From a virus (lineage: Duplodnaviria > Heunggongvirae > Uroviricota > Caudoviricetes), in the IMG/VR virus record IMGVR_UViG_3300029702_000002: a stretch of 64,000 bases of DNA; one strand, given 5' to 3'. Every line of letters starts with the position of its first letter. Positions within the stretch are counted from its first letter, which is position 1. A program made the translations under genes and the position numbers. This document shows, piece by piece, positions 22,561 through 43,762 of the stretch. The notes below the pieces were generated by a model. The model ran no database searches. It was not told the origin of the DNA and saw only the letters and a program-made list of their open reading frames with translations.

Positions 22561-24466
22561 AGCTGCGCCCCTCTTTAACTTCCAGCGTAATAGTTTCCCG
22601 GAACCATGACTTCATCTCTTTATGGGAGATAATCAGCACAGTACCTCGCTCGCGAGCTTTGGACTCCAGAATACCCATGAGGCGTTCAAGACCGGCTGTA
22701 TCGAGTGCATCGTCAATTTCGTCGCCGATAAACAAATCGATGTTTTTACTCGCCCGGTTACTAACTAGATCCTGCAATGCCAAAGAACACGCAATGCGAA
22801 CCTTCCGCTTCTCACCACCAGAGAGGGTCTGGAACGACTTACTTGAACCTTTCTTCTGCACACTAATGTTGAATTTGTCGCGATACTCACCTTTTTTAGT
22901 GACATCCATCGTCGACCACTCAGCAGTAATATTCCCGTCAGACAACGTATTGAGATACTCGGCAGTGCGTGTATTCAGGAAAGGCGTAACAGACGTCAAA
23001 ATATGAGAACGCACCCCGGCAGGAGAGTAGACCTGACGAGCTTTTTCCAATAGCAACGTTTGTTCCTGAATAGCCTTCAACTCATCTTTTAAGGACTTGA
23101 AGGTAGACTTACTGGATACCAGGTTATCTTCGTGTCTGGCGATAAGAGCAATAAACGGATTAATCTCTTTTGATATACGATCGACCTCAGTACGAGCACG
23201 AGTCACAAGAGACTCAATAGCAACAACCTCCTTCTCACGATGACGCAAAGATGAGAGTTGTTTCGTAAGCTCTTCAATCCGGGCAATGATAGCCGTTACA
23301 TCAGGTGTCGTTTTAACAAGGGCAGACTCAATGCTTAACGCTTTCTCAAGATTCGTTTTGTGTTTAGCCATTGCCTCTGCAAGTGTCTTCGCCTGACCAA
23401 TTTCCTGACGTGCTTGTTCAATGAAATTCTCCTTCACCGTTGATAGATCTTCTTCGCAGTAGGCTTTGCCACAAGTAGGGCATGGTGATCCCACTTTAGT
23501 ACCAACCTCTTCTGCTTTGGTCTTAAAATTACGCGCGCGGTTCATTGCATCAGCCTGACTATTTTCTGTAGCTTTGATGCTTGCCCGAATATCAGTTATC
23601 GCACCACGAACTTTGAGCAACTTGGCGTCATGTTCTTCTTTTGAGGCTAACTTTTTGCGCTCACTTTCGATTGCCTTCTCGGTATCACGGATCTGTTCGG
23701 GAAGAGTGCGGATCTCAAGTTCAACTTCCGTTAACTCAACTTCGGCACTGGCCAGCCCAGCCAGGGCATCGTCATAACGTTTAGAACGCTCTTGCTCCCA
23801 TGATTCAGAGGAGGCTTTCGCTGACTCAATTTCTGACTGTGTTGCCTCAATGGTCGAGATTGTCGACTCCAATTTGGTTTTAACCACATCCATACGTGCG
23901 GCAGCTGCATTAGCTCGCTCACGAGCAATAGCGTAGGCGCGTGTCAGTCTGTCAACGCCAGCGGCTTCTTCTACGATGGTTTTGAGGTTTTTGTCGGACA
24001 TTCCAGGTAAATCTGGCATAGCTTCTTGGCTCGCATAGATGGAAGCCATGAAAACCTCTTTAGATGCACCGATCAGACGCTCGACGAACTCTTGCGTCAG
24101 CGCATCTTTGCCTTTCGTCATATCGCCGTCTTCACCACGAACGATAAGCCGATTTTTGAACTCTTTGTGTTTACGGTGACGAATGATCGCATATCTCTTG
24201 CCTTCATCCTCGATGGTTACTGCAACACGACAGTTCTTTTCATGGTCGGTAGACAACACATCGTCACCCTTCACACCATGAGCTGTTTCGCCATAAAGAC
24301 ACCACATCAGGCTATTCATTAGCGTTGACTTTCCAGAGCCATTACTTGATGCGGAACTATCATCACTATTAACACCCTGAATGAGCACTAAACCACGCTG
24401 ATCTAACTCGACCTCCGCGCTGGCGATAGCCATAAAATTCTCAACCTGGAGCTTTAAAAACTTCAT
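22550..24466 (-). CDS. sbcC: SbcC/Rad50-like recombination ATPase
   Basis: Walker A GSGKST, long coiled-coil, CPTCG zinc hook, C-terminal signature/Walker B. Confidence 0.85.
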   Translation of the reverse strand: MKFLKLQVENFMAIASAEVELDQRGLVLIQGVNSDDSSASSNGSGKSTLMNSLMWCLYGETAHGVKGDDVLSTDHEKNCRVAVTIEDEGKRYAIIRHRKHKEFKNRLIVRGEDGDMTKGKDALTQEFVERLIGASKEVFMASIYASQEAMPDLPGMSDKNLKTIVEEAAGVDRLTRAYAIARERANAAAARMDVVKTKLESTISTIEATQSEIESAKASSESWEQERSKRYDDALAGLASAEVELTEVELEIRTLPEQIRDTEKAIESERKKLASKEEHDAKLLKVRGAITDIRASIKATENSQADAMNRARNFKTKAEEVGTKVGSPCPTCGKAYCEEDLSTVKENFIEQARQEIGQAKTLAEAMAKHKTNLEKALSIESALVKTTPDVTAIIARIEELTKQLSSLRHREKEVVAIESLVTRARTEVDRISKEINPFIALIARHEDNLVSSKSTFKSLKDELKAIQEQTLLLEKARQVYSPAGVRSHILTSVTPFLNTRTAEYLNTLSDGNITAEWSTMDVTKKGEYRDKFNISVQKKGSSKSFQTLSGGEKRKVRIACSLALQDLVSNRASKNIDLFIGDEIDDALDTAGLERLMGILESKARERGTVLIISHKEMKSWFRETITLEVKEGRSYVV

Positions 24467-24695: not shown

Positions 24696-25781
24696 TCACA
24701 CAGCCTCCGAACTCTCCGCTTCGGTGAGGATTTCCTGACACAAAATATCCAACTTGCTCAGATCAAATCCGCCGTCAGTATCGTGGACAATCTTGCAATA
24801 AGCAGATACCGACTCTCCCAGGCTATCGATTTTGCTGGTTTCCGTTGTGCTTGCTGTCCCTTCCATCATTGATGACTTACGGATGAAGTTGCACACAACA
24901 CCTTTTGCACCCATTGTTTTAAGGATGTTCTGGTACTTAATGCCTTCTTCATCGTTCTCGATTACGGCGCGGAAACGCACGTAGTTGCCGCGAATTTGGT
25001 CATCGGCAACATAATCTTCCAGGTTAATGAATTTAGGCGCACTGGTTTCGTAGTGACTGAAACTGCCGTCCGGGTTTACGATCATGTAACCAGCCAGAGA
25101 TCCAACATCTCCCCAATTTTGATGGGTCAGCGCACCGACACTGATAACTCCAGGAATGACCTCTTTGTGGTTGTGGTAATGCCCACTAAGCACGAGACGA
25201 AAGCCGATATCCTTTAACTCCTGCGCATCGATACCGACGTCAGGCATTGTTGGAATGGCTTTGTTAATGGATGTATGGATAACAACGTCATGGTTATCAC
25301 CTTCTACGCTCTTACGTAATGCTTTCAGATCGCTGATAAGCTCCGCATGATTGTTACGCCAGCTAATCAGGTGGACAGTCACATCACCAATTTTTATTGA
25401 GTGTGGGCGCTTGCCACATACGATTACCACGCCGATAGAACTCAGCGATGCTGCTGCGTTGGCGCTATATACTGAATCGTTGGTTTCAAGATCGTGATTA
25501 CCGGCCAGCATTACTACTATCAGATCAAGCTCGTTGATAATCCACTTGTACGTTTCAGTTACGTAATGCAAAACAGAAGGGGACACAGTTCCTCGGACGT
25601 GAAATGTATCACCGGCAACCAACATGTACTTACAACCGGCCTTCTTCATGGCGATGGCTGCTTCTTTCGTTGCTTCCAACTGTATTTCAAGTCTGGAGTT
25701 AAGCCCCTCTGCGTTCGTCGTGGAGAACGCATCCCATTTGTGGTAGTGGCAGTCAGAAATGACGCCGTATGGCAAAGTCAT
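24696..25781 (-). CDS. sbcD: SbcD/Mre11-like nuclease
   Basis: Calcineurin-like phosphoesterase motifs (GDTFH, GNHD, GHYH). Confidence 0.85.
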   Translation of the reverse strand: MTLPYGVISDCHYHKWDAFSTTNAEGLNSRLEIQLEATKEAAIAMKKAGCKYMLVAGDTFHVRGTVSPSVLHYVTETYKWIINELDLIVVMLAGNHDLETNDSVYSANAAASLSSIGVVIVCGKRPHSIKIGDVTVHLISWRNNHAELISDLKALRKSVEGDNHDVVIHTSINKAIPTMPDVGIDAQELKDIGFRLVLSGHYHNHKEVIPGVISVGALTHQNWGDVGSLAGYMIVNPDGSFSHYETSAPKFINLEDYVADDQIRGNYVRFRAVIENDEEGIKYQNILKTMGAKGVVCNFIRKSSMMEGTASTTETSKIDSLGESVSAYCKIVHDTDGGFDLSKLDILCQEILTEAESSEAV

Positions 25782-26680: not shown

Positions 26681-26759
26681 ATGTCATTTTTCTGTGATTG
26701 TTAGCCGAGGCAACGATAACCCACCAGGTGCGCCGAAGGTAGTAAATGCCTGTTTTAAT

Positions 26760-26985
26760 TATTCACATATCCACAGGATAGATCCTAATAAAGAGATCCA
26801 TAGATAGATCCTTGTATAGATCAAATAAGATCCCCGATCGCTGTAAGCCGCGCCACGACTGGTCTGAAGCCATGTTCATGTATGCTGTCAGCGGTAATTG
26901 ATAGTCTGTCAGCGGTTCACCGTATGCTGCCAACTGTTTTTGGTATTCTGTCAGCGGCAAATCAAGTATGCTGTCAGCGGTTGAA
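26760..26985. promoter_or_regulatory. plasmid-type replication origin region: DnaA box, GATC cluster, five iterons
   Basis: ATATCCACA at 26767-26775; six GATC sites within 26782-26839; TATGCTGTCAGCGGT-like repeats at 26881-26981. Confidence 0.7.
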
Positions 26986-27000
26986 TGACAAAGGTGTCCA

Positions 27001-28096
27001 CATGTCCACAAAAAATAAAAAAGGTAAAAATAACAAAGAAGTAGAAGATAATCTCGACAACTTTGAAGAAGGTTCCCTTGAATTGTACACAGGGGAACTT
27101 GTCCCTAATAGCAACAATACAGTCCAACCAATTGCGTTGATGCGGCTGGGATTGTTCGTGCCCACGCTCAAGGGGACAAAATACAGCAAGCGTAACAAGC
27201 CAAATGAGATCGATGCTTCAAAGGAGCTTGTTCAGCTCGAAGTAGCCCGTTCTGAAGGCTATTCCGATATCAAGATAACCGGTCCTCGTCTCGACATGGA
27301 TCATGATTTCAAAACGTGGGTGGGCGTTGTGCGTTCGCTGGCAGAATACGGCGAACCTAACGGTCGTGTCGAGTTAAGCATCACGAAATTTGCGAAGTTT
27401 TGTGGCTATCCATCGTCACAGATCCGCAAAACACTCCGCGACCGGCTTACAAACAGTCTTTTGAAGATCATGCGTACAACTCTGTCTTTCCAGAGAACGT
27501 ATGAAGAAAAGAACGTCGACGGCTCTAACAAGATCTCGCTTCTGATGGTGCACCTCATCAATAGCGTGGACTACAACGAGCAGAAAGATACGGTGGTGTT
27601 CTATGCAGAACCGAAGCTGGCCGAACTATATCGCTTTGACCATAAGGTTCTTTTGCAGTTAAAGGTTATCAATAAGCTACCACGCAAAGAAACAGCACAG
27701 GCTCTGTACACCTTCATCGAAAGTCTTCCAACCAAGCCTGCGCCGGTGTCGCTTGCTCGATTGCGTGCGCGACTCAATTTGAGTAGCAGGAATGTCAGCT
27801 CGCAGAATCAGACTATACGCAACGGCTTAAAAGCTCTCCAAGATTTGGGTTATCTCGAATACAGCGAGATTAAACGAGGGCGGTCGATCTATATCCAGAT
27901 TCACAGCCGCAATCCAAAACTCAAAGTCGCACCGCCAAAACCTGAAGACATCGAACCCAAAAAACTAGATGAGAAAGCTGGGGAAATTGATGCCAAACAG
28001 AACATTATCAACAAGATAACCGAACTTTCGCAGAATTTGACGCCTGAAAATATCAAGATGATTGAGATCCTTTCCAATAGTCTCAAACTGCTTTGA
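27001..28096 (+). CDS. repA: iteron-binding plasmid replication initiator RepA; start moved to ATG at 27001
   Basis: ORF 26882..28096 trimmed because its 5' extension overlaps the iterons; flanked by iteron arrays; recalled resemblance to P1/RepFIB RepA (NSNNTVQP..ALMRLG). Confidence 0.8.
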
Positions 28097-28628
28097 TATG
28101 CTGTCAGCGGTGAAATGTATGCTATCAGCGGCTATTTTTCTGAAAAGTATGCTGTGAACGGTTAAAGATATGCTACCAGCGGTATAGTGAGATGAACGTA
28201 TGCTGTGGGCGGTAAATCATCTATCACCACTCAATGCTCTGTCATACCTCCCCAGTGGTTACTAACCTCGAAGAGTGCATTCCATATAGGTTTGCGCTCA
28301 CTAACATTCTATTGCTATTGCGCTGATTGCTTGTAGTGAAAGGCATTTATTGCCTGCTGCTCCCTGATAGAACGTATGCTGTCAGCGGTGTTTTATTGAG
28401 GAATTTTTGTTTGGATATGCTATCAGCGGTAATTAATGGTATATGTCAGACCTTCGTATGCTGCCAGCGGTAATTTTGTTCTGGTTATACCCATACCGGT
28501 ACACATTATTCATGCAATGTCTTAAGTATGCTGTCAGCGGTAAAAAATCGAGTAAAGTATGCTGTGAGCGGTGAGATAGACTCTCGATATGCTATCAGCG
28601 GTAGTTGATTGTGTATGCTGTCAGCGGT
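28096..28628. repeat. downstream iteron array, 12 copies in three clusters (copy-control type)
   Basis: Copies begin at 28096, 28117, 28147, 28168, 28199, 28374, 28415, 28457, 28526, 28557, 28587, 28613. Confidence 0.85.
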
Positions 28629-28675
28629 GACGACTATGAAATATGACTGCGGAACGTGCCGCAGTCAGTTTGCAT

Positions 28676-31413: not shown

Positions 31414-32487
31414 TTACTCTTCTACTGACTCGGTGGGGTTGTCTTTTGCTCTTCGGTCGTCGATTGCCTGCAAAGCCGCAATGATTTCAGCCAGTGGCTT
31501 CTCCCGATACATCTCGACGATCTGCGATTTGGTGTATTTCTTGTCACCAATTTCAACTCGCCCGCTGGCGTTCTTTGGCAGGTATCCTTCTTCCAGCATG
31601 TACTCGACGAGCGATTCGATAACGTCGAGGCCACGAGTAGGATCGAAGTAGAATTTCCAGGTGCATTTGCCATACGGTGGTGCAACTTTGTTTTTGATGC
31701 ATTCTGCGCCTACGTCCTGGCCGATCTTCTCTTTACCATCCTTCATCACCGATGCACCAAGACGGATACGTACAGAAGCGTAGAACTTCGGTGAATCTCC
31801 ACCTGGCGACGTAGTAGGGTCGCCAAACATTACACCGATTTTTGTGCGAACCTGATTCAAGAAGATGATGCAGGCGTTGTATTTGCGTGCCCACAAAGCC
31901 AGAGTAGGGAAGTTCGCACTCGTCGCACGAGCCAGTGCCGTATTGTCGTTCATGTTTAGCTGATCTTTGTCTTTGGCAGTGCCTTCAGCCATCTTTTCGA
32001 ACTTCTCCGCTTTGGAGTTCGGAACCATAGACGCAAGAGAGTCAGCCACGATACAGATTGGTGCTGATTCGGGGATAAGCTCTTCATCACGAACCAATTT
32101 AAGTATTGTGCCGATCAACTCTACAGAGTCTTCGAAGGTATCTGGCTGCTTGTATACCCACTGACCGTCATCCTCATCTGCGTTCAGGCCATTGGCGACA
32201 GCCAGGCCAACGTCAAAACTGTTTTCATGATCGAGGAATACCGCCAGACCATCTTGTTTTTGAGCGGAGATCATCGCTGCTGTTGCAAGGAACGTTTTCC
32301 CTGCACTTGGAGGACCGAATACTTCGACGATACGACCACATGGGAAGCCGCCATCGTAACGACCAGAAATAGCTTTGTTTAACGGTGGAAAGCCTGTATC
32401 AATCCAATGAGTTACTTTCTGAATTTCGTCGTTGCTACCGATTTTCTTTTTCAGAGCAAGTGCCAGTGCGGATTTTCCTTTTGCCAT
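31414..32487 (-). CDS. RecA/UvsX-like recombinase
   Basis: Walker A GPPSAGKT; RecA-fold core; 357 aa. Confidence 0.85.
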   Translation of the reverse strand: MAKGKSALALALKKKIGSNDEIQKVTHWIDTGFPPLNKAISGRYDGGFPCGRIVEVFGPPSAGKTFLATAAMISAQKQDGLAVFLDHENSFDVGLAVANGLNADEDDGQWVYKQPDTFEDSVELIGTILKLVRDEELIPESAPICIVADSLASMVPNSKAEKFEKMAEGTAKDKDQLNMNDNTALARATSANFPTLALWARKYNACIIFLNQVRTKIGVMFGDPTTSPGGDSPKFYASVRIRLGASVMKDGKEKIGQDVGAECIKNKVAPPYGKCTWKFYFDPTRGLDVIESLVEYMLEEGYLPKNASGRVEIGDKKYTKSQIVEMYREKPLAEIIAALQAIDDRRAKDNPTESVEE

Positions 32488-32489
32488 GA

Positions 32490-32762
32490 TCAGGCTCCTT
32501 TTGTTTCGTTGATTCGTTTTAAAGCGGCGGATTCATCGAATACAATCGCATCGTGGTTAAGGAGTCTGGATACACGAGCGAGGATTTTTACGACCTGCTC
32601 GCTGACTAATCCAAACTCGCGATCTGTCGCTTTCATTCCGGCAGCGCCTAGAATTGACGGCAGTGCGATGACAGCGTACTCACCGTGATAAAAGACAATC
32701 TCTTTTGCCAGTTGGGCAGGGGTGGTTGTAGCGCCATTGATAATCGATTTAAGCATTAGCAA
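32490..32762 (-). CDS. hypothetical protein (90 aa)
   Basis: ORF track. Confidence 0.45.
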   Translation of the reverse strand: MLMLKSIINGATTTPAQLAKEIVFYHGEYAVIALPSILGAAGMKATDREFGLVSEQVVKILARVSRLLNHDAIVFDESAALKRINETKGA

Positions 32763-33751
32763 TACCTTTCGAATGGAAGAACAAACACTTCAAGGTCTTC
32801 AAGGAACGAACGGAAATTCAGCTCGTAGCACAGTTGCTCGAATGCTTTCACGTCACGATTGCCTTTGATTGTTTCGATTTCGGTAGGCGGAAACTTCGTC
32901 TCAATCAGGTTCATTAGCGTGATGTTTCTCTTGAACGCTTCGAGCATTCGACAGCCTGTTTTCTCGTTGAAGGCATTCTTCGCTAGTTTGTTGAAGGCGG
33001 TCTTATGACGCCCTTTATTAACCACGATTGAGCCGTCGTTGATGCCGCGTACCATCGTTGCGACACTTCCCCATTCATGCAGCAGCTCTTTCGCACCGCC
33101 AGCACCAATGCCACCAACACCGCTAATGTTGTCCGAGTTATCGCCTTGTAATGCTTTTGCTTCCAAAAATGCGCGAGGCGTGGCGAATCCTGTCAGCTCC
33201 GCAAATTGCTCAAAATTAACCTGCTTGTTTTTGGCGTCTTCACGCAGGCTTACCCAGCTTACGTTTTCACGAACTAACTGAAGCCAGTCGCTATCGCCTG
33301 TTAACAGATAGATGTGTTCAACGATTGGCTGCGGTGCAATGCTGGCTACCAGCAGCCCGGCCAGATCATCCGCTTCTGCATCTTTTGCAATGAGTTGGGT
33401 AACTCCAAGCGCGGTCATCATTTTGAGGATGTATGGCTTCTGGATAGCAAAGCCTTCCTTCATCTTTTTCATATCAGGATCGTCGTCGCGATTTGCTTTG
33501 TAGTCCGGGTAAAAGTCGCGACGCTTGTCACTAAATCCATCCCAAAGAATCATAGGTCGGGCATGGAGGATGGAGGCATAACGACGGACGTTCTTAACAA
33601 AGCCGAAAGCAGCCTGTACTTCCATTTCGCCGTTGTGCAATTTGTCAGATTGTTGGTGGTAATAACCCAGGCTATTGCCATCTACGAAGAGATAATTCAC
33701 CGGTACATTCCTTCCAAAAAGTAAGGCGTCCGTAGACGCCTTACTGGTCAC
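32756..33751 (-). CDS. 5'-3' exonuclease / flap endonuclease
   Basis: LFVDGNSL, LTGDSD, GDNSDNISGVGGIG motifs. Confidence 0.85.
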   Translation of the reverse strand: MTSKASTDALLFGRNVPVNYLFVDGNSLGYYHQQSDKLHNGEMEVQAAFGFVKNVRRYASILHARPMILWDGFSDKRRDFYPDYKANRDDDPDMKKMKEGFAIQKPYILKMMTALGVTQLIAKDAEADDLAGLLVASIAPQPIVEHIYLLTGDSDWLQLVRENVSWVSLREDAKNKQVNFEQFAELTGFATPRAFLEAKALQGDNSDNISGVGGIGAGGAKELLHEWGSVATMVRGINDGSIVVNKGRHKTAFNKLAKNAFNEKTGCRMLEAFKRNITLMNLIETKFPPTEIETIKGNRDVKAFEQLCYELNFRSFLEDLEVFVLPFERYC

Positions 33752-33760
33752 GTAATGGGA

Positions 33761-34789
33761 TTACAGAGAGTCCAGCTCTCTCAGTAGGTCATCCAGACCT
33801 TCATCTTCCGTCGCAGATGCGGCTGCTACAGATGTCGCTGCGACTGCTTCAGACTCTTTGACTGATACTGCAACGGCAGCGGAACTTGCTTCTGGTTTAA
33901 ATTCAGTTTCAACGGCACGGAGGATTTCTTCATCAACCAGACTGGTTGGTTCAGAAGCTGGGGTATGAGCGGTAGCTACAGCCGTCGCTCCTTCTGTATG
34001 ACCAGTGACAGAGCCAAATCCAGGTAGTGCCGCAGCCGATGTTTTCGCGGTTGAGGAAATTGCTGGTGCAGATGCTGCGGCAGTTGGTGCAGCGATGCCA
34101 ATCAGACGACCCATAGTGCGAACTGTCGACAGAAGACGAGTTTCATCAGCCTGATTTGCGTATGCGATCAGATCATGCTGGGTATTCCAGAATTTATCTT
34201 CGATATCGCCTTTGTAGACTTTACGCTTAGGCGAGACGTCATATTTGGTATCGCGACCAGAGCCAGTACGTTTAATCAGGAATGCGTAGCCTTCCTCTTT
34301 GCTCAGTGGATTGCCGATATCATCAGCGATGTCTTCGGTGATTGCTTTGCAGATATCATCGAATACAGTAGACGGCAGCTCGATTAACTGGCATTTCTCA
34401 GCATCTGCGAAATCCTCACGAGCAGAAAGAATGCCGTTGACCAGGTAGCGAGGAGTGGCACGCATTTGACCGATGCGTTCTTCCATTGCTTTGTTACCCT
34501 TGTGACGAGCGCGACCTTCCATCACCATTTCGCATAGCTGACAAGCGCGACCGTGAGTATGTTGCTCACAAATATAAGCGTTGGTTGCTTCTTTACCTTC
34601 CTCGTTCTGATACTTAACGTAGTGCATACCGAAAGTCTGGAAGAACTTACCGTTTGGGTCGTCTTTATTCGGGAAGATGCGGATATAGTTGACGCCGTCT
34701 TTTAAGCGAGTCAGATCAACGTTGTTACCACGTTTGGCGGCAATGTCTTCACGAGTTTTGTTAAGCAAATCAAGTAATGTCTTAGACAT
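33761..34789 (-). CDS. T4 gp32-like single-stranded DNA-binding protein
   Basis: IRIFP...YICEQHTHGRACQLC zinc-site pattern resembling recalled gp32; acidic C-terminal tail DEGLDDLLRELDSL. Confidence 0.7.
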   Translation of the reverse strand: MSKTLLDLLNKTREDIAAKRGNNVDLTRLKDGVNYIRIFPNKDDPNGKFFQTFGMHYVKYQNEEGKEATNAYICEQHTHGRACQLCEMVMEGRARHKGNKAMEERIGQMRATPRYLVNGILSAREDFADAEKCQLIELPSTVFDDICKAITEDIADDIGNPLSKEEGYAFLIKRTGSGRDTKYDVSPKRKVYKGDIEDKFWNTQHDLIAYANQADETRLLSTVRTMGRLIGIAAPTAAASAPAISSTAKTSAAALPGFGSVTGHTEGATAVATAHTPASEPTSLVDEEILRAVETEFKPEASSAAVAVSVKESEAVAATSVAAASATEDEGLDDLLRELDSL

Positions 34790-34906
34790 GTGTTTCTCCT
34801 TGTTGTGATTTGGCCGATGGCGCTATGCGCGTTGGGCTTTCGTTCATTCGTGGCTCTTTCGAGCTGTTAAATGATAGATCAGCACTTACTTATTATCTAT
34901 CAAAAA

Positions 34907-35338
34907 TCAACGGGGAGTAATAAAGCGTTCAGAGCCTAATCGCTCTAATTCAACAATGGCCATCTTCGACGCCTGAACAATCATGTCTCGGCGATGCGAA
35001 AAGGCGGCAACAGCATGTTTGTATATGTCTGCGATGTGCCGTGCTTCATCCAACTTCTGCCGTTTAGATAGATACTGTGGGTTTGTTTTAACCTTAGCGT
35101 CTAGTACAGATTCGTTGAACTTAATGCCGTTCATACTCAAGTTTTTACGCTCTGTGTCGTATAGCTTTGCTTCAACAGCTTCAAGGTTAAGTTTTGCCTC
35201 TGCGACACTTCTTTCTGCATGGGCGAGCTTTGAACCATACTCCATCAACAGGCGAGGTTGCTGACGCCAGACTTCCTCCAGATTGTCGCGGTCGAATTCA
35301 AGATCGGACATGATTTTTTCGTAGATATCTGCACTCAT
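34907..35338 (-). CDS. hypothetical protein, possibly UvsY-like recombination mediator
   Basis: Size and position next to gp32-like/UvsX-like genes; weak resemblance only. Confidence 0.35.
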   Translation of the reverse strand: MSADIYEKIMSDLEFDRDNLEEVWRQQPRLLMEYGSKLAHAERSVAEAKLNLEAVEAKLYDTERKNLSMNGIKFNESVLDAKVKTNPQYLSKRQKLDEARHIADIYKHAVAAFSHRRDMIVQASKMAIVELERLGSERFITPR

Positions 35339-35482
35339 TTTTGATAGGTTCCAACTTACTTTAGTGTATTTGATTGTATCAAATAAAAAGAGCTTTACTG
35401 CTATGATTAGCGGTAGACAGTATGGGAGCTAAAGGGCAGAATCAGGGCATAAAGCGAACAGAACAAAGTGAGAATAAAATCA

Positions 35483-36448
35483 ATGAATAAAGCTAACAAT
35501 CAAGCAAAAGCAGAAAAGCCTGTGCCGACTAAAGAACTGTCCCCACCCCCAAAAGTTAAGACTGCGAGGTCAGCAGCAGAAAAAAATAAAACTGAAGGCA
35601 TGACATATCCGAAGACCAGCGCAGAAGGACACGCTGGTGAGTACTTATTTGCTTATTGGATTTCTCGTTATTTCAAATGGCCTTGTCGACTGCTGGATAT
35701 TGATATGGGGTTGGATGCACAGGTTGAAATCTATGAAAATGAACTTTCTACCGGTATGTTTATTGGCGTTCAGGTAAAAACCACCTCACGCACAATGAGT
35801 AGTAGTCTAGGAGTACAGATCCCCTATAAAAATTTAAAGTATTGGGGGGAATGCGATTTCCCTATAGTGATCGTTTTAATTTGTCTAAACGAAGATAATA
35901 AGCATGAAGAGCCAGATATTTACTGGCGGCATTTAGACAAACAAACCATCGCATCGTTATCAAGTACAGCGGATTACAATAACTCAGGAAGTACATCAGT
36001 AACATTTAACGAAGACCAATATCTGAAATCTCCAAGGGATAGAGAGAAATGGCTTAGATTATGGCTATCTAGTGAAGATCTGAAGATCATTGAACGATGC
36101 GAAGGTATTGAGAGAAACATTACTGCATTAGGGAAATTCTTTGAAGAAACAATTGTGGACGGGGATTTAAAACAGGGACTACCAACTCTTGATTTTTTTC
36201 GTAATTTAAACGATTTGTTGGACTCATATGATGAGGTGGAATTGGCTATTAGAGGTAACAATCGACTAGAGTATCTATCAGAGGAAGTTAAATCACTTAA
36301 AAAATGTCATGAGCGCTATATGCCTAAAATTATGTATGCCTTTGAACAGGCGTGCGAATCAAATAGTGTCATGATGAGTGATTTCGATCCGTATTCCCCT
36401 ATAAATAATAAACTCCATACTATACTAGTTAATAATAGAATTTATTAA
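35483..36448 (+). CDS. PD-(D/E)xK nuclease-like protein of unknown function (start may be GTG at 35468)
   Basis: GEYLF...D.GLDAQVEI...IGVQVKT resembles a D..E.K nuclease core; lower-GC plus-strand insert with own terminator. Confidence 0.55.
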   Translation: MNKANNQAKAEKPVPTKELSPPPKVKTARSAAEKNKTEGMTYPKTSAEGHAGEYLFAYWISRYFKWPCRLLDIDMGLDAQVEIYENELSTGMFIGVQVKTTSRTMSSSLGVQIPYKNLKYWGECDFPIVIVLICLNEDNKHEEPDIYWRHLDKQTIASLSSTADYNNSGSTSVTFNEDQYLKSPRDREKWLRLWLSSEDLKIIERCEGIERNITALGKFFEETIVDGDLKQGLPTLDFFRNLNDLLDSYDEVELAIRGNNRLEYLSEEVKSLKKCHERYMPKIMYAFEQACESNSVMMSDFDPYSPINNKLHTILVNNRIY

Positions 36449-36454
36449 CTAAAA

Positions 36455-36482
36455 GGCCCGTTATATAACGGGCCTGTTTATT
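36455..36482 (+). terminator. rho-independent terminator
   Basis: GGCCCGTT-ATAT-AACGGGCC hairpin followed by TGTTTATT. Confidence 0.7.
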
Positions 36483-36623
36483 ATATTAAGCGACCTTCTT
36501 ACCAAAAATGTTGGATAGCGAGACTCTGGTTTGGCACTTCAGCCTGTACTGTCTTACATCGCCAATCTTGTTTACTTCCATAAACTCTTTTCTCTCTGGC
36601 CACCTTCATGGTGTTCTCTTTGT

Positions 36624-39600
36624 TCATTTGCTAATAGTCTCCGCTACCTCTGCAAGAATTGCTTCCAGCTTTTCGCCTTCCTCTGGGCGAAAGTACAAAA
36701 TATTCGGGTTAAATCCGTAGAAAACGGTCACATCCAGCTCCGGCAGATACTCTTTGCGTCCAACCAGGTCGGATGGTTTGCTCTTGTTGTTGAAGAGCGA
36801 CGTCGCCCGGCTGCCACACGTCAGCACATAGGTCGGATGCACCAGATTGATCTCTTCACGTATAAAGTCGGTGAACTGGCCGATCTCGTCTTTGGTGTAG
36901 TCTTTTTCTTTGTCTTTAACCTTCTTGCAAACGCCTGTGACATAGAGATCGCCCATGCGTAAATCTCCAGCCGTCAATAGCTTGGCCTTAAAATCGTCGT
37001 ATCCGTTCTCCATGAAGTAACCGGTTCGAGCATCATTGCCGTTCGCATTGTCCAGAATGATCATGATTTTCGGCTTAATGCCAATGCTGGGGCGGATTAG
37101 TTCATCACCTAAGCCCATTTCAGCCGCCATCCGTGTCATGAGTGCGTTAATTTCAGCCGATCGTTTGGGGTTCATCTCAAACGGACGTGAGGCTTTAACT
37201 GCGTCTATGACAAGGTTTCCCATCAATTCTGCCTGGTCGCGGAGACGCTCTGGATCAGTTGCTGGCAGACTACCTGGCTCGATGGATGCAAACGCACCTA
37301 CTTTTTGCAGTGATTCGCGCACTCGACTATTACAGGCACGTTTCTCGACAGCTTCTTCGAATTGCGCCAGTGACTCGAATTTGCCGCCAACTTTTTCTCG
37401 CGCTCTCATGATGGCTTGGCAGCCATTCTCAGAACACCCCTTCACAGCAGAGAAGGGCGCATACAGAACCTGGCTGCCATCTTCAAGCGTGCGGATCTCG
37501 ATTCGGTTAGATGACACGTTAACGTCTGGTGGCAATACGCGAATACCATAGGTCAGCGCATCTTTAACCAGCCCTTGGTGTTTATCTTCGCCAAGAATAG
37601 TGAGAGCAGCAGCGAAAAACTCTGCGGGATAATGAGTTTTCAACCACATAGATTGATAACTGATTAAAGAATAAGCAACGGAGTGTGATTTATTGAACTG
37701 ATAGGCTCCGTTTTTCTCAAATGCGGTCCAGATCTCCTTCGCTTTCATCTCTGATAGCCCTGGATGTGACGCTGTAACGCGTACTGCGTTTATAGGTAGT
37801 TTTGCGCCGTGCTCAAGTGCCTCTTCGACAGTTTTCAGAGTTCCGTCTTCGCATTTAAAATGTTCCGCACGGTGAATGCGCTGTGTAGTGCCATCTTCCA
37901 GCTCAACGTCTATCCAGCCAGCTTGAGCCTGAACGATGAACTTCTCGCCCATGCTCTTCATTTTTTCCATGTTCTTCTTACCGATTGCGGAACGCACAGC
38001 GTCAGCTTCAGCCATTGTGAAGCCGGCAAGCAATCGAGTCGCGTTCATCGTCTGTTCCTGATAGAGAATCACGCCATTTGTTTCCGCGGTAAGTTCATCA
38101 AGAACGGGGTGTAATGATTCCGGCGTCATAAAGCCTTTGGCGACAGAAACATAGTCATCCAACATGCCTGATTGAATTGGCCCCGGCCGGAAGAGCGCAG
38201 TTGTAGCGACGACCGTTTTAAAGCTCATTGGCTCAATTCCACCACCTAAATCTTTAAGCAGCTTGCGCATTGGGCCTGATTCAAGCTGGAAAACACCTTG
38301 AGTGTACCCAGCAGCAAAACCATCCAGCACCTTGCGATCTTCAAGAGAAATGGCATCAAGATTGATATCTTCACCTGTGTTCTCTTTTATGTAGCGTTTT
38401 GCACTATCGAGCAAATCGAGAGTTGCCAGGCCAAGCACGTCCAGCTTAATTAGGCCCATAGCCTCGCAGTAACGCTTGTCAAATGCGATACAACGCGCGT
38501 CACCACGGCGCTCAACCGGTGTACGTTCTGTCAGAGGAACACCTGCTACGATCATCCCTGCCGCATGTCTACCAAAGCCACGCATAAGGCTTTGTAACTT
38601 GCAGGCTGCATTGAATGCATCAGGATATTTTGTTGCGTATTTGTCGAGACTTGCCAGTTGTTCGCGCAGCTCTTCCAATGGAAGGCTATCATCCTCGACG
38701 TTCTTCAGTTCTTTTGATACCGCCATATCTGCGGACTCCACACCATAAATACGAGCGGTATCACGTAGTGCAGAGGCTGCGCCCAGGTAGGTGAAGTTCG
38801 GAATACCCGCAACGTAATCTTCGCCGTAGCGTTCATTCAGATACTCGATCACCTCATGGCGACGTGCCTGGCTGAAGTCCAAGTCCGCATCCGGCAAGTC
38901 GAGACGCTCAGGGTTGATGAAACGCTCAAACAGAAGACCGTGACGGATTGGGTCGACGTTGGTTATGCCTATGCACCACGCCACCAGAGAACCGGCAGAG
39001 GAACCACGACCAGGCCCAACGGGAATGCCAGTTTCACGACTATGATTCATCAGATCGCGTACCATCAGGAAGTAACCACAAAATCCCAGGCGAGTCAGCG
39101 TGTCCATTTCGTACTTTAGCCGCTCAACATAAACCCTGTTCTCAGAAGCAGGTGGTGTGTAGCCAAACTCTTTTGTGGTAAGACGTTTACGCAGCCCTGC
39201 AACAGCCAGTTTCATAAGCGTTGCAGGCTCGTCGTCTGCCATCTTTGGCAGTGCTGGCGGCAATTCATGCCAGCGCCATGTGCAGGCATCGATAATGGTA
39301 TCCTGCGTTGTTGAGGCCATTGCAGCTGTTACCGGCACATCCATGCGAACGGAGAAGGCTTTAAGCGCCTCAAGGAGATGGCGGCGACCATTGACGGCGT
39401 TATCTCGCTGGTGGGGGATACGCAGACGATGCGGCTGGTCGATTTTGATGTTGTTCGTAACCATGTGCGCAATGTCTTTAATGTCTGCATCGTCGATCGA
39501 TTCGTAATAAGCGGGATAGAACGCCACTGGCTCTATTTTCAATGCGCTGGCGACTTTCATCGCCCGGACGTTAATCTGGTCGTAGAATGGGGTAGGGTGC

Positions 39601-40142
39601 GGATAAACCACACTATAGAAGTTGTCTTTTCCACCCGCTGTAATCAGTGTGCTTATGATTTTTGCAAAATCGTTGCGTTGGAACACGCTACCGATGTCGG
39701 AAGTAAGCAGGATGATGTTGCCTTTGGCATATGTAGAAACCAACTGTTCGAGCGAGAGACGCGGTACAAAGTAGAACTGTTCTCGTGTGTTGGCCGCCGT
39801 CATTAGTTCGCAGATGTCGCGATATCCTTGCTCATTTTTAATTAGAGCGGTAAACGAGTAGTTACGTCCCCGCTCTAATGATTCCATACATCTCATAGAT
39901 TCTTTAGCAAGTTTAGCCCGGTGCTCGTATGTGGGATCATCAACAATGTTTAGTTTCACACCACAAATAACCGCCATGTCGTCACCAGCGGCACGTTGTA
40001 GTGGAATAACGCTCGCAATATTCATGCTATCTGCTGAAATTACAGCGGTGTAGCCAGCTTCTCTGGCAATCTTCACCGCGTTTTCTGCTTTTAGAGCCGA
40101 CTCCCCAAGTGAGAAGTCAGTTCGAACCATCAGTGCCTTCAT
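36624..40142 (-). CDS. dnaE: DNA polymerase III alpha-like replicative polymerase
   Basis: 1172 aa; degenerate N-terminal PHP region, C-family polymerase core motifs. Confidence 0.85.
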   Translation of the reverse strand: MKALMVRTDFSLGESALKAENAVKIAREAGYTAVISADSMNIASVIPLQRAAGDDMAVICGVKLNIVDDPTYEHRAKLAKESMRCMESLERGRNYSFTALIKNEQGYRDICELMTAANTREQFYFVPRLSLEQLVSTYAKGNIILLTSDIGSVFQRNDFAKIISTLITAGGKDNFYSVVYPHPTPFYDQINVRAMKVASALKIEPVAFYPAYYESIDDADIKDIAHMVTNNIKIDQPHRLRIPHQRDNAVNGRRHLLEALKAFSVRMDVPVTAAMASTTQDTIIDACTWRWHELPPALPKMADDEPATLMKLAVAGLRKRLTTKEFGYTPPASENRVYVERLKYEMDTLTRLGFCGYFLMVRDLMNHSRETGIPVGPGRGSSAGSLVAWCIGITNVDPIRHGLLFERFINPERLDLPDADLDFSQARRHEVIEYLNERYGEDYVAGIPNFTYLGAASALRDTARIYGVESADMAVSKELKNVEDDSLPLEELREQLASLDKYATKYPDAFNAACKLQSLMRGFGRHAAGMIVAGVPLTERTPVERRGDARCIAFDKRYCEAMGLIKLDVLGLATLDLLDSAKRYIKENTGEDINLDAISLEDRKVLDGFAAGYTQGVFQLESGPMRKLLKDLGGGIEPMSFKTVVATTALFRPGPIQSGMLDDYVSVAKGFMTPESLHPVLDELTAETNGVILYQEQTMNATRLLAGFTMAEADAVRSAIGKKNMEKMKSMGEKFIVQAQAGWIDVELEDGTTQRIHRAEHFKCEDGTLKTVEEALEHGAKLPINAVRVTASHPGLSEMKAKEIWTAFEKNGAYQFNKSHSVAYSLISYQSMWLKTHYPAEFFAAALTILGEDKHQGLVKDALTYGIRVLPPDVNVSSNRIEIRTLEDGSQVLYAPFSAVKGCSENGCQAIMRAREKVGGKFESLAQFEEAVEKRACNSRVRESLQKVGAFASIEPGSLPATDPERLRDQAELMGNLVIDAVKASRPFEMNPKRSAEINALMTRMAAEMGLGDELIRPSIGIKPKIMIILDNANGNDARTGYFMENGYDDFKAKLLTAGDLRMGDLYVTGVCKKVKDKEKDYTKDEIGQFTDFIREEINLVHPTYVLTCGSRATSLFNNKSKPSDLVGRKEYLPELDVTVFYGFNPNILYFRPEEGEKLEAILAEVAETISK

Positions 40143-40322: not shown

Positions 40323-41558
40323 TTAACCAAATATTTTTTGAACAACTTCACGAGCCGCTTGTGCAGAAGCTGAAGGGAGTTTGTTAATGAAAGAACGCTC
40401 AATACCTGTCACAAAGTCGCCTCGCATCATTCCAATCTTGGCCGACAACAAAAGTTCACGAGGGCCAATTGGCTGACTGATAAGGTGTTCTTCGTATCCA
40501 TCGCGAACGATACCGGCAAACTTAACCATCTTTTCTGCGTATTCATCCACGATACCGGCATTTATCAACATGTTGATCTCTGCCTCTTTGCTCATGTATT
40601 TCACATTCGAAACGATGCCAAAACGCGAAAAGTTCGCGGCGTTCTGGATGTTTGTACCCTGGTACAAGCCGGTTTCATCACCAGATCCGTTCGTGTTGCC
40701 AGTGCCAATGAAAGCAAACCGTTCATGCGGAGTAATGCGACGCCATTCTGGAGTCGCCTCTTTGATGACCAACGCTTCACCTTCCAGCACTGGCTGATAC
40801 ACGCCAAGAATCTGTGGAAACGCAAAGTCGTATTCATCCGCGAGGTAAACCCAGCCATGCTTCATTGCGAGCGCAAGCAAGCCAGGCTCGAAATACGTAG
40901 AGCCATCACGCGCCAGAATTTGTCCCGTAACATGAGCCTCTTCCATTGATGCTGTATGTTGGGCACGGATTAACGGACGATTGAGCAAAGCACATAGTTG
41001 TGTAGGCAATGAAGATTTGCCTGTTCCTGCATGACCCCACAAATAGCCAGGTATGCCAAGTTCAAGCATCATGAAAATGTCTTTGATCAGTTCGAAGTCG
41101 CCATATACGTATCCCTTCTTCACTTCTGGAACGAACTCTGGAAACGGCGTATTGACGTTGACGCTAACCATGAGCGGCGTCCCACGTTTTGTTCCGAGTT
41201 CTTTCACCGTTACATTTAGCAGTTCGTGAGCTGCGACCAGATCTGTCTTGTACTCAACTGTGCCTGTGTAGCCTGGGCTACTGGTCACGCCAGATGATTT
41301 GGCCATTTCGCTTTTTTGCTCGGCACGTTTAGCTTGAATTGCATCAAGTGCCTTTTTCGATAGCGTTGGCTCATCTGGAAACTGTGTTGTGTACATTTTC
41401 AGTACGGTGTCAGGATCGGCATCTTTTACTGACTCAGGAATGCCCTCGCAATTACCATTGGCTACATGGGACTTAAAATAGTGAAATGATTTTCCGCACC
41501 ACTTGCAAACAAGGTAATCAGAAGGATTTTTTTCATTTTGCAGTGCAGTAGTAGTCAT
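40323..41558 (-). CDS. MoxR/CobS-like AAA+ ATPase
   Basis: Walker A GHAGTGKS, Walker B YLADEYD; N-terminal Cys cluster CKWCG...C. Confidence 0.75.
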   Translation of the reverse strand: MTTTALQNEKNPSDYLVCKWCGKSFHYFKSHVANGNCEGIPESVKDADPDTVLKMYTTQFPDEPTLSKKALDAIQAKRAEQKSEMAKSSGVTSSPGYTGTVEYKTDLVAAHELLNVTVKELGTKRGTPLMVSVNVNTPFPEFVPEVKKGYVYGDFELIKDIFMMLELGIPGYLWGHAGTGKSSLPTQLCALLNRPLIRAQHTASMEEAHVTGQILARDGSTYFEPGLLALAMKHGWVYLADEYDFAFPQILGVYQPVLEGEALVIKEATPEWRRITPHERFAFIGTGNTNGSGDETGLYQGTNIQNAANFSRFGIVSNVKYMSKEAEINMLINAGIVDEYAEKMVKFAGIVRDGYEEHLISQPIGPRELLLSAKIGMMRGDFVTGIERSFINKLPSASAQAAREVVQKIFG

Positions 41559-41653: not shown

Positions 41654-43762
41654 TCACTTTAAAATGATACGAGATAGTTCAGTAACTACAGATGAACCAA
41701 GACTATCAACGCTCGTTACCAGGGCATGATTTGAGTAAAATCTCTCCGGTGCGTCAGTCATGATGCCAATTGCCATCAAATCAATATCAGTCTGCGTTTC
41801 AATTTGCTTCGCAACTGAACGCAAATGAGCGTCAAAACCTCTCCCAACAGCCCACGGCGCGCCATCACTCAGAACAAGCATGATCTTCCTGTCCTCCATG
41901 CGACCGGAAAATAACGATGCAAGGCTGGCTATGCTTTCACCATCCACGTTATTAAGAAGTGGGAATGTGTAGCCTACGCACCCCATACGTGAGCGAACTT
42001 CGCGAGAATTTACCTTTTCATTCCAATTTTTGATGATAGGTAGCATTAAAGATTCAAAGCGAGAGAACTCATACTTGACAGCCTTAAGTTCTCCTGCCGC
42101 CATATGACTACCAAATGTAGTGAAGCCGGTGATAATGTTGGGAACATTTATTCGATCAAGTGCATCGGCGATGGTATATGCACTTGCAAGAGCTAGTTTT
42201 ATCGTTTCGCCACTCATTGAACCCGATAAATCAATCACTTGTTGAACACAGGCGTTAACGGCTTTAGATTCTTCTTTTTTACGAAACACGCGATCATCAT
42301 TCATTGTTAATCTGTAGATACTTGAACCATGAATGCGCCCCCGACGCTGGCCAGGTATAAACTGAACTCTGTTTCTGCTTGCTATTGCACGTTCCAGGTC
42401 TTTTGCCAGCGTCGACGAAACACCTGACGAAAGGTGCTTTTCAATATATTTGTCGAAGAGTTGGTTGCCTTCAGGAACGATGCGATAACGGCTGATTGGA
42501 TATCCACCTAAATCAATATCGGAGAATGTTTTAATAAGCCGTTTGATATGGGCTTCTGCCTGATCAATCGAGCCGATGAAGTCGTATGAGCGATTGTATG
42601 GCCTGTATTCGCTTTTCGAGCTTTCTGTTAACTCGCTTTTAATCGTTTCGGATAGCGCATCTTCTGTCATGCCTCCGACTTCATCTTCCATGCTATCCAA
42701 CTCCTCTAAAGCCTCTTCCAGACTCATTTTTGACGGAGTTGGAATGTCTGAAGAGCCGTCTTCTGTCGATTTTCTTTTTTCGTGGTCAGTGGTAAATGAT
42801 TCTGACGCCGCGTTATCAGAAGCACCAGAATCTGATACCTCTTTATCATTTTCTGTATCATCGAATATTGTTTCTGATGATTCAGAATTATCTGAATCAT
42901 CACTGTCGTTATTATCATGTTTGTGCTTACTGTGTGATTCTGATATGATAGATTTGTGATTATCTAACGCTGAGGGTGTCTCATGATCTTCGTTGTCTTC
43001 ATTGTTTTCTCCAGAGGCATCCGTCTGGTCAGCGTCTGAAGGATCGGAAGTTTTTCCCGGAGCTGACTCCTTACCTTTGCTTTCACTTTCAGTGTCTTTG
43101 AGGATCTTAGCTATGGTCGCAGCCACCTTTACACAATCCTCGGTGCAAGACATGTTACGCACGGCCACATCGATACCATGTTCTTTTAATAATGAAATTG
43201 GTTTCTCAATGACATGCCAATATTCATCCATGAAATCTACGAACGGTGCTTGGCCATCCCAGGCTCTTACAACCGGACAGAGAAAGAAGTTTAGAAAAAG
43301 CGCGCGCTGATCTTTGCCACAATAAGCAATAGCCTCTGAAGCCTTTGGTTTAAAGACTTTTTCGATTATAAGGCGCTGAGTTGCCATCAGATTACGTCTT
43401 GTTCCGTTAAAGACCTGACCCATTTTTCGCTCGATGAACACGTCTTCTAAGGCATTCCATAGCGACCAGGAAGGAACGCGTCCTTTTTCTCTCATTTTGT
43501 TGGACACACGAATATCGGTAAACAAAATGTGAGCAACCTCATGATCGAGAAATCCGCGCACAGCATTCATCAATGCCGGTGTTGCGTTATCCGGGATTGA
43601 TGGGATGTTTACGAGAATTGGCTCTCCATCATCGTTATAGCGTACATAAGCGTCGTCCCCTCGTTCTGCAACAGGGATGTTTTTACCTGAAAGGAGAGCG
43701 ACTACTCGTTTTACACTGTCACGGAAGTCCTGAACCTCTTTGATGGAACGTTTTTTAGACAT
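41654..43762 (-). CDS. CobT-like protein with acidic disordered region and C-terminal VWA domain
   Basis: MIDAS-like DLSGSMSG motif; long Asp/Glu/Ser-rich central region. Confidence 0.75.
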   Translation of the reverse strand: MSKKRSIKEVQDFRDSVKRVVALLSGKNIPVAERGDDAYVRYNDDGEPILVNIPSIPDNATPALMNAVRGFLDHEVAHILFTDIRVSNKMREKGRVPSWSLWNALEDVFIERKMGQVFNGTRRNLMATQRLIIEKVFKPKASEAIAYCGKDQRALFLNFFLCPVVRAWDGQAPFVDFMDEYWHVIEKPISLLKEHGIDVAVRNMSCTEDCVKVAATIAKILKDTESESKGKESAPGKTSDPSDADQTDASGENNEDNEDHETPSALDNHKSIISESHSKHKHDNNDSDDSDNSESSETIFDDTENDKEVSDSGASDNAASESFTTDHEKRKSTEDGSSDIPTPSKMSLEEALEELDSMEDEVGGMTEDALSETIKSELTESSKSEYRPYNRSYDFIGSIDQAEAHIKRLIKTFSDIDLGGYPISRYRIVPEGNQLFDKYIEKHLSSGVSSTLAKDLERAIASRNRVQFIPGQRRGRIHGSSIYRLTMNDDRVFRKKEESKAVNACVQQVIDLSGSMSGETIKLALASAYTIADALDRINVPNIITGFTTFGSHMAAGELKAVKYEFSRFESLMLPIIKNWNEKVNSREVRSRMGCVGYTFPLLNNVDGESIASLASLFSGRMEDRKIMLVLSDGAPWAVGRGFDAHLRSVAKQIETQTDIDLMAIGIMTDAPERFYSNHALVTSVDSLGSSVVTELSRIILK

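Follow-up and report, generated by a model that had tools for sequence, protein, structure and literature searches.

How a bacterial-type DNA polymerase comes to stand among T4-like recombination genes, close to a plasmid origin, is the question raised by positions 31414–40142 of the IMG/VR virus record IMGVR_UViG_3300029702_000002 (Caudoviricetes), of which a stretch of 64,000 nucleotides (the window) was analyzed; genes of the window lie on the minus strand unless marked (+). A sequence-only reading had described this region as a chimeric replisome, in which a DnaE-type polymerase is combined with a gp32-like single-stranded DNA-binding protein (SSB) and a RecA/UvsX-like recombinase, and had suggested that recombination-dependent replication was grafted onto a plasmid RepA origin. 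Our analysis confirms the observation and supports its interpretation in part. The region is the core of a phage-type replication and recombination module of an SSU5-like phage-plasmid of Escherichia coli, and sequence comparison indicates that the arrangement is an old, known viral module and no new chimera. All genes that had been named were found at or near the positions given for them, as long open reading frames (ORFs) with E-values far beyond chance and strong profile assignments, with the primase as the weak case.

SSU5-like phage-plasmids are temperate siphoviruses that are maintained as low-copy plasmids. The span 31414–40142 recurs with 100% identity in four deposited E. coli plasmids (about 109–111 kb), and its nucleotide identity amounts to 97% with Escherichia phages PhiR41_1 and CMS-2020a, 94.5% with Cyrano and 83% with Salmonella phage SSU5. 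Altogether 800 plasmid records match the span, mostly non-mobilizable ones in Klebsiella, Escherichia, Enterobacter, Yersinia and Salmonella, and the GC content is even over the region. These matches to SSU5-like plasmids and phages place the element in the SSU5 supercommunity that Pfeifer et al. (PMC7969092) described for phage-plasmids. Within this group (SSU5, pHCM2, pMT1 and pLF82, which is Cyrano) the span is 83–100% identical at the nucleotide level and the gene order is alike. Cyrano, the plasmid pLF82 of E. coli LF82, forms virions and is present in about 5.5 copies per cell (PMC9928086). Its public annotation already names DNA polymerase III alpha, RecA, “SSB T4 gp32-like”, UvsY, an exonuclease, Pol III epsilon, helicase, primase and RepA. 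Compared with its SSU5-like relatives, the element differs in the RepA cassette and in the slot between dnaE and the uvsY-like gene, and both dnaE and recA are uninterrupted, in contrast to many relatives, where homing endonucleases or inteins are inserted in these genes. As both the element and its gene content can be found in public records, and the polymerase architecture has been known since 2014, the novelty is low; what is added here is a clearer evolutionary reading, namely a viral module of ancestral origin into which a plasmid cassette was inserted.

The polymerase gene (36624..40142) encodes a C-family DNA polymerase of the DnaE type with 1172 aa, composed of a PHP domain, the Pol3 core, the fingers, a (HhH)2 domain and a domain resembling uracil-DNA glycosylases (UDG). 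Matches to PF07733 (Pol3 catalytic, E=1.3e-73), PF17657 (fingers, E=7.8e-44), PF14579 ((HhH)2, E=1.7e-16) and PF02811 (PHP, E=5e-13) together with 630 bits on TIGR00594 (cut-off 434) place the polymerase in the family that had been claimed for it, as PF08804 does for the SSB. On the DnaE model NF004226 it scores 678 bits, under the equivalog cut-off of 1002. The polymerase shares 29% identity with E. coli DnaE over its whole length and 37% within the catalytic core, and 36.5% with the DnaE of Pseudomonas phage nickie; judged by these sequences, dnaE is no recent capture from the host.

The PHP domain (residues 1–300; 39243..40142) is 19% identical to that of E. coli. Barros et al. (2013; PMC3666897) defined nine metal-ligand positions with the consensus H H D/H H E H C/H D/N H, which in E. 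coli are occupied by R10, H12, D19, F44, D69, H83, G134, D201 and R203. In an alignment with E. coli DnaE, Mycobacterium tuberculosis (Mtb) DnaE1, SSU5 and Cyrano, these positions correspond to M5, R7, E14, S39, K63, a gap beside F97, S148, P210 and Y212. The degenerate PHP domain of the earlier description is thereby borne out: none of the nine ligands is canonical and the domain is therefore more degenerate than that of E. coli alpha, which retains four of the nine. The loss is common to nickie and about 45 related clusters. A phmmer search of the PHP domain alone against solved structures gave no match, whereas full-length and 400-aa queries gave alignments. The E. coli Pol III core is likewise a C-family polymerase with an inactive PHP domain and a separately encoded DEDDh exonuclease. 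However, the OB fold and the tau-binding domain of alpha are not present here, and there are no genes for the partners theta, tau, clamp loader and clamp.

The fingers contain a family-specific insertion of about 52 aa (residues 742–795; 37758..37919), which is the site at which the gene is split in relatives. In many of them dnaE is divided into ORFs of 787 and 389 aa, with a free-standing HNH/NUMOD4 homing endonuclease of 231 aa between them, for example at positions 2918–7170 of the relative locus L005, while the copy in the window is unsplit. The 389-aa product comprises the HhH and UDG-like parts and its cluster holds 1459 member sequences; many N-terminal representatives of about 780 aa with 38–42% identity suggest that the split is widespread. 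In addition, a DnaE-UDG protein of 1271 aa (locus L013, 9311–13126) has a weak Intein_splicing match and some plasmids (NZ_CP029421, NZ_AP027572) carry a LAGLIDADG endonuclease at dnaE.

The C-terminus of the polymerase is predicted to form a UDG-fold domain (residues ~992–1172; 36627..37169) in place of the OB and tau-binding domains. Residues 956–1172 gave no OB-fold or tau-binding profile match. Residues 1053–1170 match the family-4 UDG model TIGR00758 of NCBIfam (E=3e-7, 30.3 bits, under the cut-off of 125.3), and the isolated C-terminal region matches the Pfam UDG family PF03167 (E=0.0024, 18.4 bits, under the cut-off of 24.3). An AlphaFold2 model of residues 950–1172 (pLDDT 81.7, pTM 0.79) retrieved in Foldseek the family-4 UDGs 4zbx, 1ui0 and 1l9g as well as UdgX (E~1e-10, probability 1.00), with 4zbx as best match (E=5e-11, TM 0.77). 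NCBI names the split C-terminal DnaE fragments “uracil-DNA glycosylase”. Family-4 enzymes have a motif A of the form GE[AG]PG, a motif B HPS and four Fe-S cysteines. Mapped by inspection, the domain has DNANG for GE[AG]PG and NPN for HPS. Across 14 family members the number of invariant cysteines is zero, so that an Fe-S cluster is not expected, and because the usual family-4 motifs are not kept the catalytic competence of the domain is doubtful.

This architecture was reported in 2014 from Yersinia pestis and Salmonella enterica by Timinskas et al. (PMC3919608), who found PHP, Pol3 and (HhH)2 with a UDG-superfamily domain for the OB and C-terminal domains. Their unassigned variant “DnaEX” has exactly the architecture seen here, and the two species are the hosts of pMT1 and pHCM2. 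While it was a rare oddity in the 2014 paper, it now covers at least 59 clusters (50% identity) forming one clade with PHP-dead and PHP-intact subclades. When 1.84 billion representative proteins were searched exhaustively with DnaE, 32,473 matches were obtained. All of the best ~40 full-length representatives (~34–41% identity, 1080–1140 aa, plus one more at 65%) have the UDG-like C-terminus, and ordinary DnaEs of 1150–1200 aa score below them. The catalytic cores were compared in a neighbour-joining tree, which is distance-based, has no named outgroups and is read as unrooted splits, so that it is indicative rather than a formal phylogeny. In this tree one split has 59 of the 60 UDG-bearing sequences together on the same side. 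The tree places the DnaE of the window in the UDG-bearing clade; a monophyly test on the midpoint-rooted tree was misleading and was replaced by the unrooted splits. The UDG-bearing side contains a coherent PHP-dead group of 45 clusters, including the window, SSU5, nickie and the Rhizobium phage RHph_X66, and a coherent PHP-intact group of 12–13 clusters with nine of nine ligands.

In a 191-kb metagenomic contig (ERZ27247105 k141_36759) a PHP-intact DnaE-UDG is encoded together with DnaB, primase, CobS/T, a sigma factor, a small ORF next to DnaE, gp32, FEN, RecA, SbcD and SbcC. A polymerase of this PHP-intact kind is also encoded on a 130-kb contig (GCA_018903175.1, JAHIQL010000025.1). As a PHP-intact DnaE-UDG occupies the same module, the “mosaic” of the replisome should be older than the loss of the PHP ligands. 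The PHP-intact DnaE-UDG elements have no relative among cultured phages, where the best match reaches 33% identity, and in the 5–23 kb parts of metagenomic contigs that were read no DnaQ was found beside it. The PHP-intact proteins are P0081, P0083, P0087, P0088, P0093, P0094, P0096, P0097, P0111, P0112, P0135, P0140 and P0155; among the four with contigs looked up, the UDG domain is detectable with Pfam in P0083, P0087 and P0140 and not in P0094. P0140 and, in part, P0083 and P0094 are located within the same replication module.

The gene order points to an old module. Nickie (Nickievirus) and RHph_X66-like siphoviruses of about 110–120 kb have the same order at protein identities of 29–48%: DnaB, primase, ligase, CobT, CobS, DnaE-UDG, UvsY-like, SSB, FEN, RecA, SbcD, SbcC, RuvC or Nrd, Thy and DnaQ. 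In nickie the annotated order reads DnaB, primase, ligase, CobT, CobS, DnaE, SSB, FEN, RecA, SbcD, SbcC, RuvC, NrdA, NrdB, ThyA, DHFR and DnaQ. Since nickie, RHph_X66 and metagenomic contigs share this order, the mosaic goes back to the ancestry of a broad siphovirus lineage, and a chimera in the sense of a local graft does not agree with these data.

The plasmid origin itself is real, as had been proposed. A replicon similar to P1 oriR is located at 26759..28632 (+) and consists of DnaA-box-like sites, GATC sites, iterons, repA and further iterons. The repA gene (~27002..28096, +) encodes a Rep3-family protein of 364 aa (PF01051, Rep3_N, E=5e-9, 37.1 bits, cut-off 22.4), and the iteron GTATGCTGTCAGCGG occurs in at least 15 copies around it, in clusters at 26860–26985, 28096–28217 and 28374–28632. 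Five iterons of the upstream cluster lie at 26880–26985. The mechanical ORF of repA begins at ATG 26882, within the first upstream iteron; the likely start is the in-frame ATG 27002 just past the iterons. Six GATC sites lie within about 70 bp (26779–26845) upstream of repA, adjoined by two DnaA boxes with one mismatch each (26759–26775), a type of site of which the window holds 22 against 15.8 expected, a number not above chance. RepA is 99% identical to that of CMS-2020a, 87.5% to that of Klebsiella SSU5-like phages, 48% to that of Cyrano and SSU5 and 43.5% to P1 RepA. In the P1 replicon (oriR, RepA and the incC/incA iterons) repA is preceded by DnaA boxes, clustered GATC sites and five iterons and followed by iteron clusters, a layout that the cassette resembles. 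In contrast to P1, the iteron sequence is a different one and the cassette lies within a phage replication module, between the recA-like gene and an ASCH gene.

The direction of the insertion, however, is the reverse of the earlier suggestion that replication was grafted onto the RepA origin. In nickie nothing is annotated as a replication initiator between RecA and SbcD, and in RHph_X66 RecA is directly followed by the ASCH gene and SbcD, whereas the window has about 5 kb with repA and several small genes between RecA and ASCH. Rep3 RepA and iterons were not found in nickie or RHph_X66, and homologues of the Rep3-type RepA are confined to phage-plasmids of enterobacteria. The missing annotated initiator in nickie, the RecA–ASCH junction in RHph_X66 and the RepA identity of 48% to Cyrano, compared with 94.5% in the dnaE region, identify the RepA/iteron cassette as the inserted, exchangeable part of an ancestral module. 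RHph_X66 has an initiator of the RepC type (locus L010, 5512–6624) between ligase and CobT, plus CopG and XRE regulators. This suggests that the same replisome backbone was converted into plasmids independently (Rep3 versus RepC).

The T4-like character of the module comes from its SSB and a UvsY-like gene. The SSB (33761..34789, 342 aa) belongs to the gp32 family (PF08804, E=1.7e-66, 224.7 bits, cut-off 26.8, with profile positions 1–208 of 208 covered) and has an Ala/Ser/Thr-rich linker and an acidic C-terminal tip; its H56...C74...C83-x2-C86 pattern is a candidate for the zinc-binding His/Cys3 ligands of the family. A phmmer search of the SSB against the Protein Data Bank (PDB) gave no match, and the assignment rests on Pfam. 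Upstream of it we identified a gene absent from the earlier list, as were the DUF4365 gene discussed below and the UDG-fold C-terminus of DnaE: the 143-aa ORF 34907..35338 encodes a putative recombination mediator of the UvsY type. Its AlphaFold2 model (pLDDT 91.3) retrieved T4 UvsY in all of the top 19 Foldseek matches from the PDB (TM 0.72–0.93, rmsd 1.3–3.2 A), while unrelated structures reached a TM of at most 0.5. At the sequence level neither a single-sequence search nor a 15-homologue profile matched the PDB, and the support consists of a weak match to phrog_231 (E=1.3e-4). A UvsY-like gene is located at the same position in nickie and Rhizobium phages. The element thus has genes for gp32, a UvsY-fold mediator and a recombinase next to one another.

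The recombinase (31414..32487, 357 aa; PF00154, E=2.2e-42) is the functional counterpart of T4 UvsX, and its assignment to the RecA family stands. The UvsX type does not: although the protein matches phrog_97 “UvsX-like” with E=1e-91, among solved structures bacterial RecA (E=6e-35) is preferred over phage UvsX 9gbg (2e-9) and T4 UvsX 3io5 (1e-5). On the RecA equivalog model it scores 153.7 bits, under the cut-off of 325.3. By sequence the recombinase is thus RecA-type, and the T4 flavour derives from gp32 and the UvsY-fold mediator. The RecA coding sequence of Cyrano (L001, 5974–8313) comprises 779 aa compared with 357 aa here, probably due to an intein. Between SSB and recombinase genes lie a 5'-3' flap endonuclease (FEN) of the Pol I N-terminal-domain type (32756..33751; PF02739, E=1e-23; PF01367, E=7e-12; phrog_107) and a conserved 90-aa ORF (32490..32762; phrog_2207, E=5e-54), which was found in SSU5 and L005; nickie has no annotated ORF between the exonuclease and RecA genes. 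The scan of the replication region further revealed SbcD (24696..25781), SbcC (22550..24466), a RuvC-like resolvase (21223..21792) and, between the latter two, a conserved ORF with no assigned role (21802..22560).

The helicase and primase claimed before are encoded as well. The DnaB-like helicase (56016..57356; PF03796, E=4e-13) and the DnaG-like primase (54753..56006), whose profile matches are weak but consistent (TIGR01391, E=5e-9, plus Toprim), are 39% identical to their nickie homologues, and an ATP-dependent DNA ligase follows at 50211..51533 (PF01068, E=6e-13). The window also encodes RNase H, ribonucleotide reductase, thymidylate synthase, DHFR and a nucleotide-kinase-like P-loop protein. 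A sliding clamp or clamp loader was found neither in any scanned ORF nor in the complete annotation of Cyrano, and processivity would therefore most likely come from the host beta clamp. A candidate site is the linear motif R-x-x-D-Q-x-x-L-[LM]-[PG]-G (DnaE residues 966–978; 37209..37247), which is kept in nearly all of 40 aligned clade sequences and located between the HhH and UDG-like domains, with the internal clamp-binding motif QADMF at the equivalent place of E. coli alpha. Its conservation throughout the clade makes DQxxL[LM][PG]G possibly a clamp-binding motif. The 214-aa P-loop ORF 13831–14475 is an annotation trap in this respect: with E=4e-11 it matches a PHROG named “clamp loader of DNA polymerase”, and in Cyrano it is called “ABC transporter”; we rejected it as clamp loader, its Pfam and PDB matches being nucleotide kinases that share the P-loop only.

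Two coexisting replication systems are in our view the best explanation for this gene content, and we regard it as reasonably probable. In the plasmid state the P1-oriR-like cassette with its DnaA-box-like sites, GATC cluster, iterons, Rep3 RepA and downstream control iterons would initiate replication with host enzymes. During lytic growth the element would use a replisome of its own, composed of the DnaB-like helicase, the DnaG-like primase and DnaE with its catalytically dead PHP and UDG-fold domains, with the DnaQ-like exonuclease proofreading in trans, the host beta clamp providing processivity, possibly through DQxxL[LM][PG]G, and the gp32-family SSB, FEN for primer removal, RNase H and ligase completing the set. 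Together with SbcCD and RuvC, and UvsW in relatives, gp32, the UvsY-fold mediator and RecA would load the recombinase on SSB-coated single-stranded DNA, so that invading 3' ends may start or restart replication and produce concatemers for packaging.

Recombination-dependent replication of the T4 style is thus plausible by analogy of gene content. The roles of the T4 recombination genes (UvsX, UvsY, gp32, gp46/47, UvsW and gp49) are well established. As in T4, the genes for a gp32-family SSB, a UvsY-fold mediator and a recombinase are adjacent, and SbcCD may be regarded as analogous to gp46/47, the RuvC-type resolvase to gp49 and FEN to T4 RNase H. Unlike T4, the recombinase is nearer to bacterial RecA, the polymerase belongs to the C-family instead of family B (gp43), helicase and primase are of the DnaB/DnaG type, and the scanned ORFs include neither a gp45 clamp nor a gp44/62 loader nor gp59.

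Several points weigh against the two-system interpretation. A helicase loader of the gp59 type is not among the scanned ORFs, and UvsW is present only in the annotation of Cyrano, elsewhere on the element and outside the window. No lytic origin was identified, although a systematic search was not made. As far as can be judged from its residues, the UDG-like domain is without the canonical family-4 motifs, and in the MAFFT alignment QAELM of the DnaE in the window is not opposite E. coli QADMF, the register of this alignment being ambiguous. The DnaQ-like protein stops about 20 residues past the exonuclease domain and has neither an alpha-binding segment nor a clamp motif, and we found no experiments on these proteins in the literature searched.

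An unlikely but serious alternative is that RecA-like, UvsY-like, gp32, SbcCD and RuvC serve repair, recombination between elements, the handling of multimers or concatemers only, and that lytic replication starts at an origin and changes from theta to sigma mode. This would be in line with Pfeifer et al. (PMC7969092), who placed RecA-like proteins and resolvases under “recombination” among the persistent genes of the SSU5 supergroup and did not tie them to replication, with the missing gp59-type loader, T4 polymerase, clamp and clamp loader, and with a complete helicase–primase pair that could act at an origin. However, the gp32, UvsY and recombinase genes are adjacent to each other and beside dnaE, in a layout that is kept in very distant lineages, down to 24–30% protein identity, and fits a role linked to replication, and the lytic origin that this alternative needs is the one not found, with the limit on the search given above. 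We therefore prefer a recombination set that works together with the lytic DnaE replisome.

The proofreading step of the two-system model depends on the DnaQ-like protein (12783..13340, 185 aa), a separate DEDDh 3'-5' exonuclease as previously described, which comprises the exonuclease domain only (PF00929, E=6e-22, 79.4 bits, cut-off 24). It shares 31% identity with the catalytic domain of E. coli epsilon, and all five DEDDh residues are kept (D9, E11, D99, H155 and D160, equivalent to D12, E14, D103, H162 and D167 of epsilon). E. coli epsilon is tethered to alpha via 57 extra C-terminal residues (PMC2528190). Because the DnaQ-like protein is without this tail, a coupling to DnaE cannot be of the E. 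coli kind. It is doubtful, but conceivable, that the exonuclease acts in another pathway such as repair, nucleic-acid turnover or counter-defence, with the polymerase unproofread or served by host epsilon. The tail-less domain structure would fit such a role, as would the position of the gene 23 kb from dnaE among nucleotide-metabolism genes and the scores under every NCBIfam epsilon equivalog cut-off (NF004316, 71 bits versus 196). On the other hand, the active site is intact and the gene stands alongside a PHP-dead DnaE-UDG in three distant lineages (SSU5-like, nickie and RHph_X66, the last two inspected in full); homologues with 40–45% identity occur in nickie and in Rhizobium, Stenotrophomonas and Xanthomonas phages. 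Furthermore, loss of the PHP ligands generally correlates with a separate epsilon homologue (Barros et al., 2013; PMC3666897), and in the host, epsilon attaches to the PHP domain of alpha, to which that of the window is only 19% identical. For these reasons, the intact DEDDh residues, the company of the same polymerase type and the general trend, proofreading of DnaE in trans is most likely and, at the level of sequence, plausible. A 139-aa ORF (13350–13769) starts 10 bp upstream of dnaQ and weakly matches the ORF directly upstream of nickie dnaQ (BLASTP, E=2e-4); its product is a mere candidate for a conserved partner protein of the exonuclease.

It is highly improbable that DnaE is an accessory error-prone polymerase of the DnaE2/ImuC type given to the host and no replicase of the element, a reading to which the “additional polymerase” of some Y. 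pestis and S. enterica strains and the mostly DnaE2-type plasmid-borne C-family polymerases (Timinskas et al., 2014; PMC3919608) could lend support, and which we rejected on model scores (678 bits on NF004226 for DnaE, 401 bits on NF004225 for DnaE2) and gene context, given that dnaE lies within a helicase, primase, SSB, FEN and ligase module, also in nickie, which is without this plasmid replicon, and that profile scans of the window ORFs found no imuA/imuB-like neighbours.

Next to dnaE, genes for a CobS-like AAA+ ATPase (40323..41558) and a CobT-like VWA protein (41654..43762) are conserved. They are located immediately upstream of dnaE in SSU5-like elements, nickie, RHph_X66 and the metagenomic contigs L012 and L015, and a sigma-70-like gene is often found between them and dnaE. 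On the other side, the DUF4365/restriction-endonuclease-like accessory gene (35468..36448, +; PF14280, E=2.6e-16; PADLOC Aga_REase, E=2e-10) is outside the replisome. The slot it occupies between dnaE and the uvsY-like gene is variable, with HicAB in Cyrano, an AlpA-like regulator in SSU5 and DUF7740 in L005, and looks like an accessory or defence hotspot. Elsewhere in the window, ORF 4467–6152 encodes a 561-aa DUF4942 protein with a methyltransferase-like C-terminal part (PADLOC mad2 and MTase_II matches), and a Sel1-repeat protein (53571–54761, +) adjoins the primase gene on the opposite strand.

With regard to the family as a whole, we tentatively suggest that DnaE-UDG is a distinct, mainly viral lineage of C-family replicases, in which a repurposed UDG fold, for example as non-catalytic uracil or single-stranded DNA sensor or as dock for the DnaQ-like exonuclease, which has no tail, or for the acidic tip of gp32, replaced the OB and tau-binding domains. 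The PHP ligands may have been lost once, accompanied by a DEDDh proofreader in trans, and the backbone may have become a plasmid more than once by host-appropriate initiators, Rep3 in enterobacteria and RepC in Rhizobium. In this sense the polymerase is a natural experiment, a C-family replicase that has neither tau nor an OB fold nor an active PHP domain. In clinical Enterobacteriaceae, SSU5-like phage-plasmids are frequent and, according to the literature, often carry resistance genes; which replication system runs in which state therefore bears on their copy number, induction and spread.

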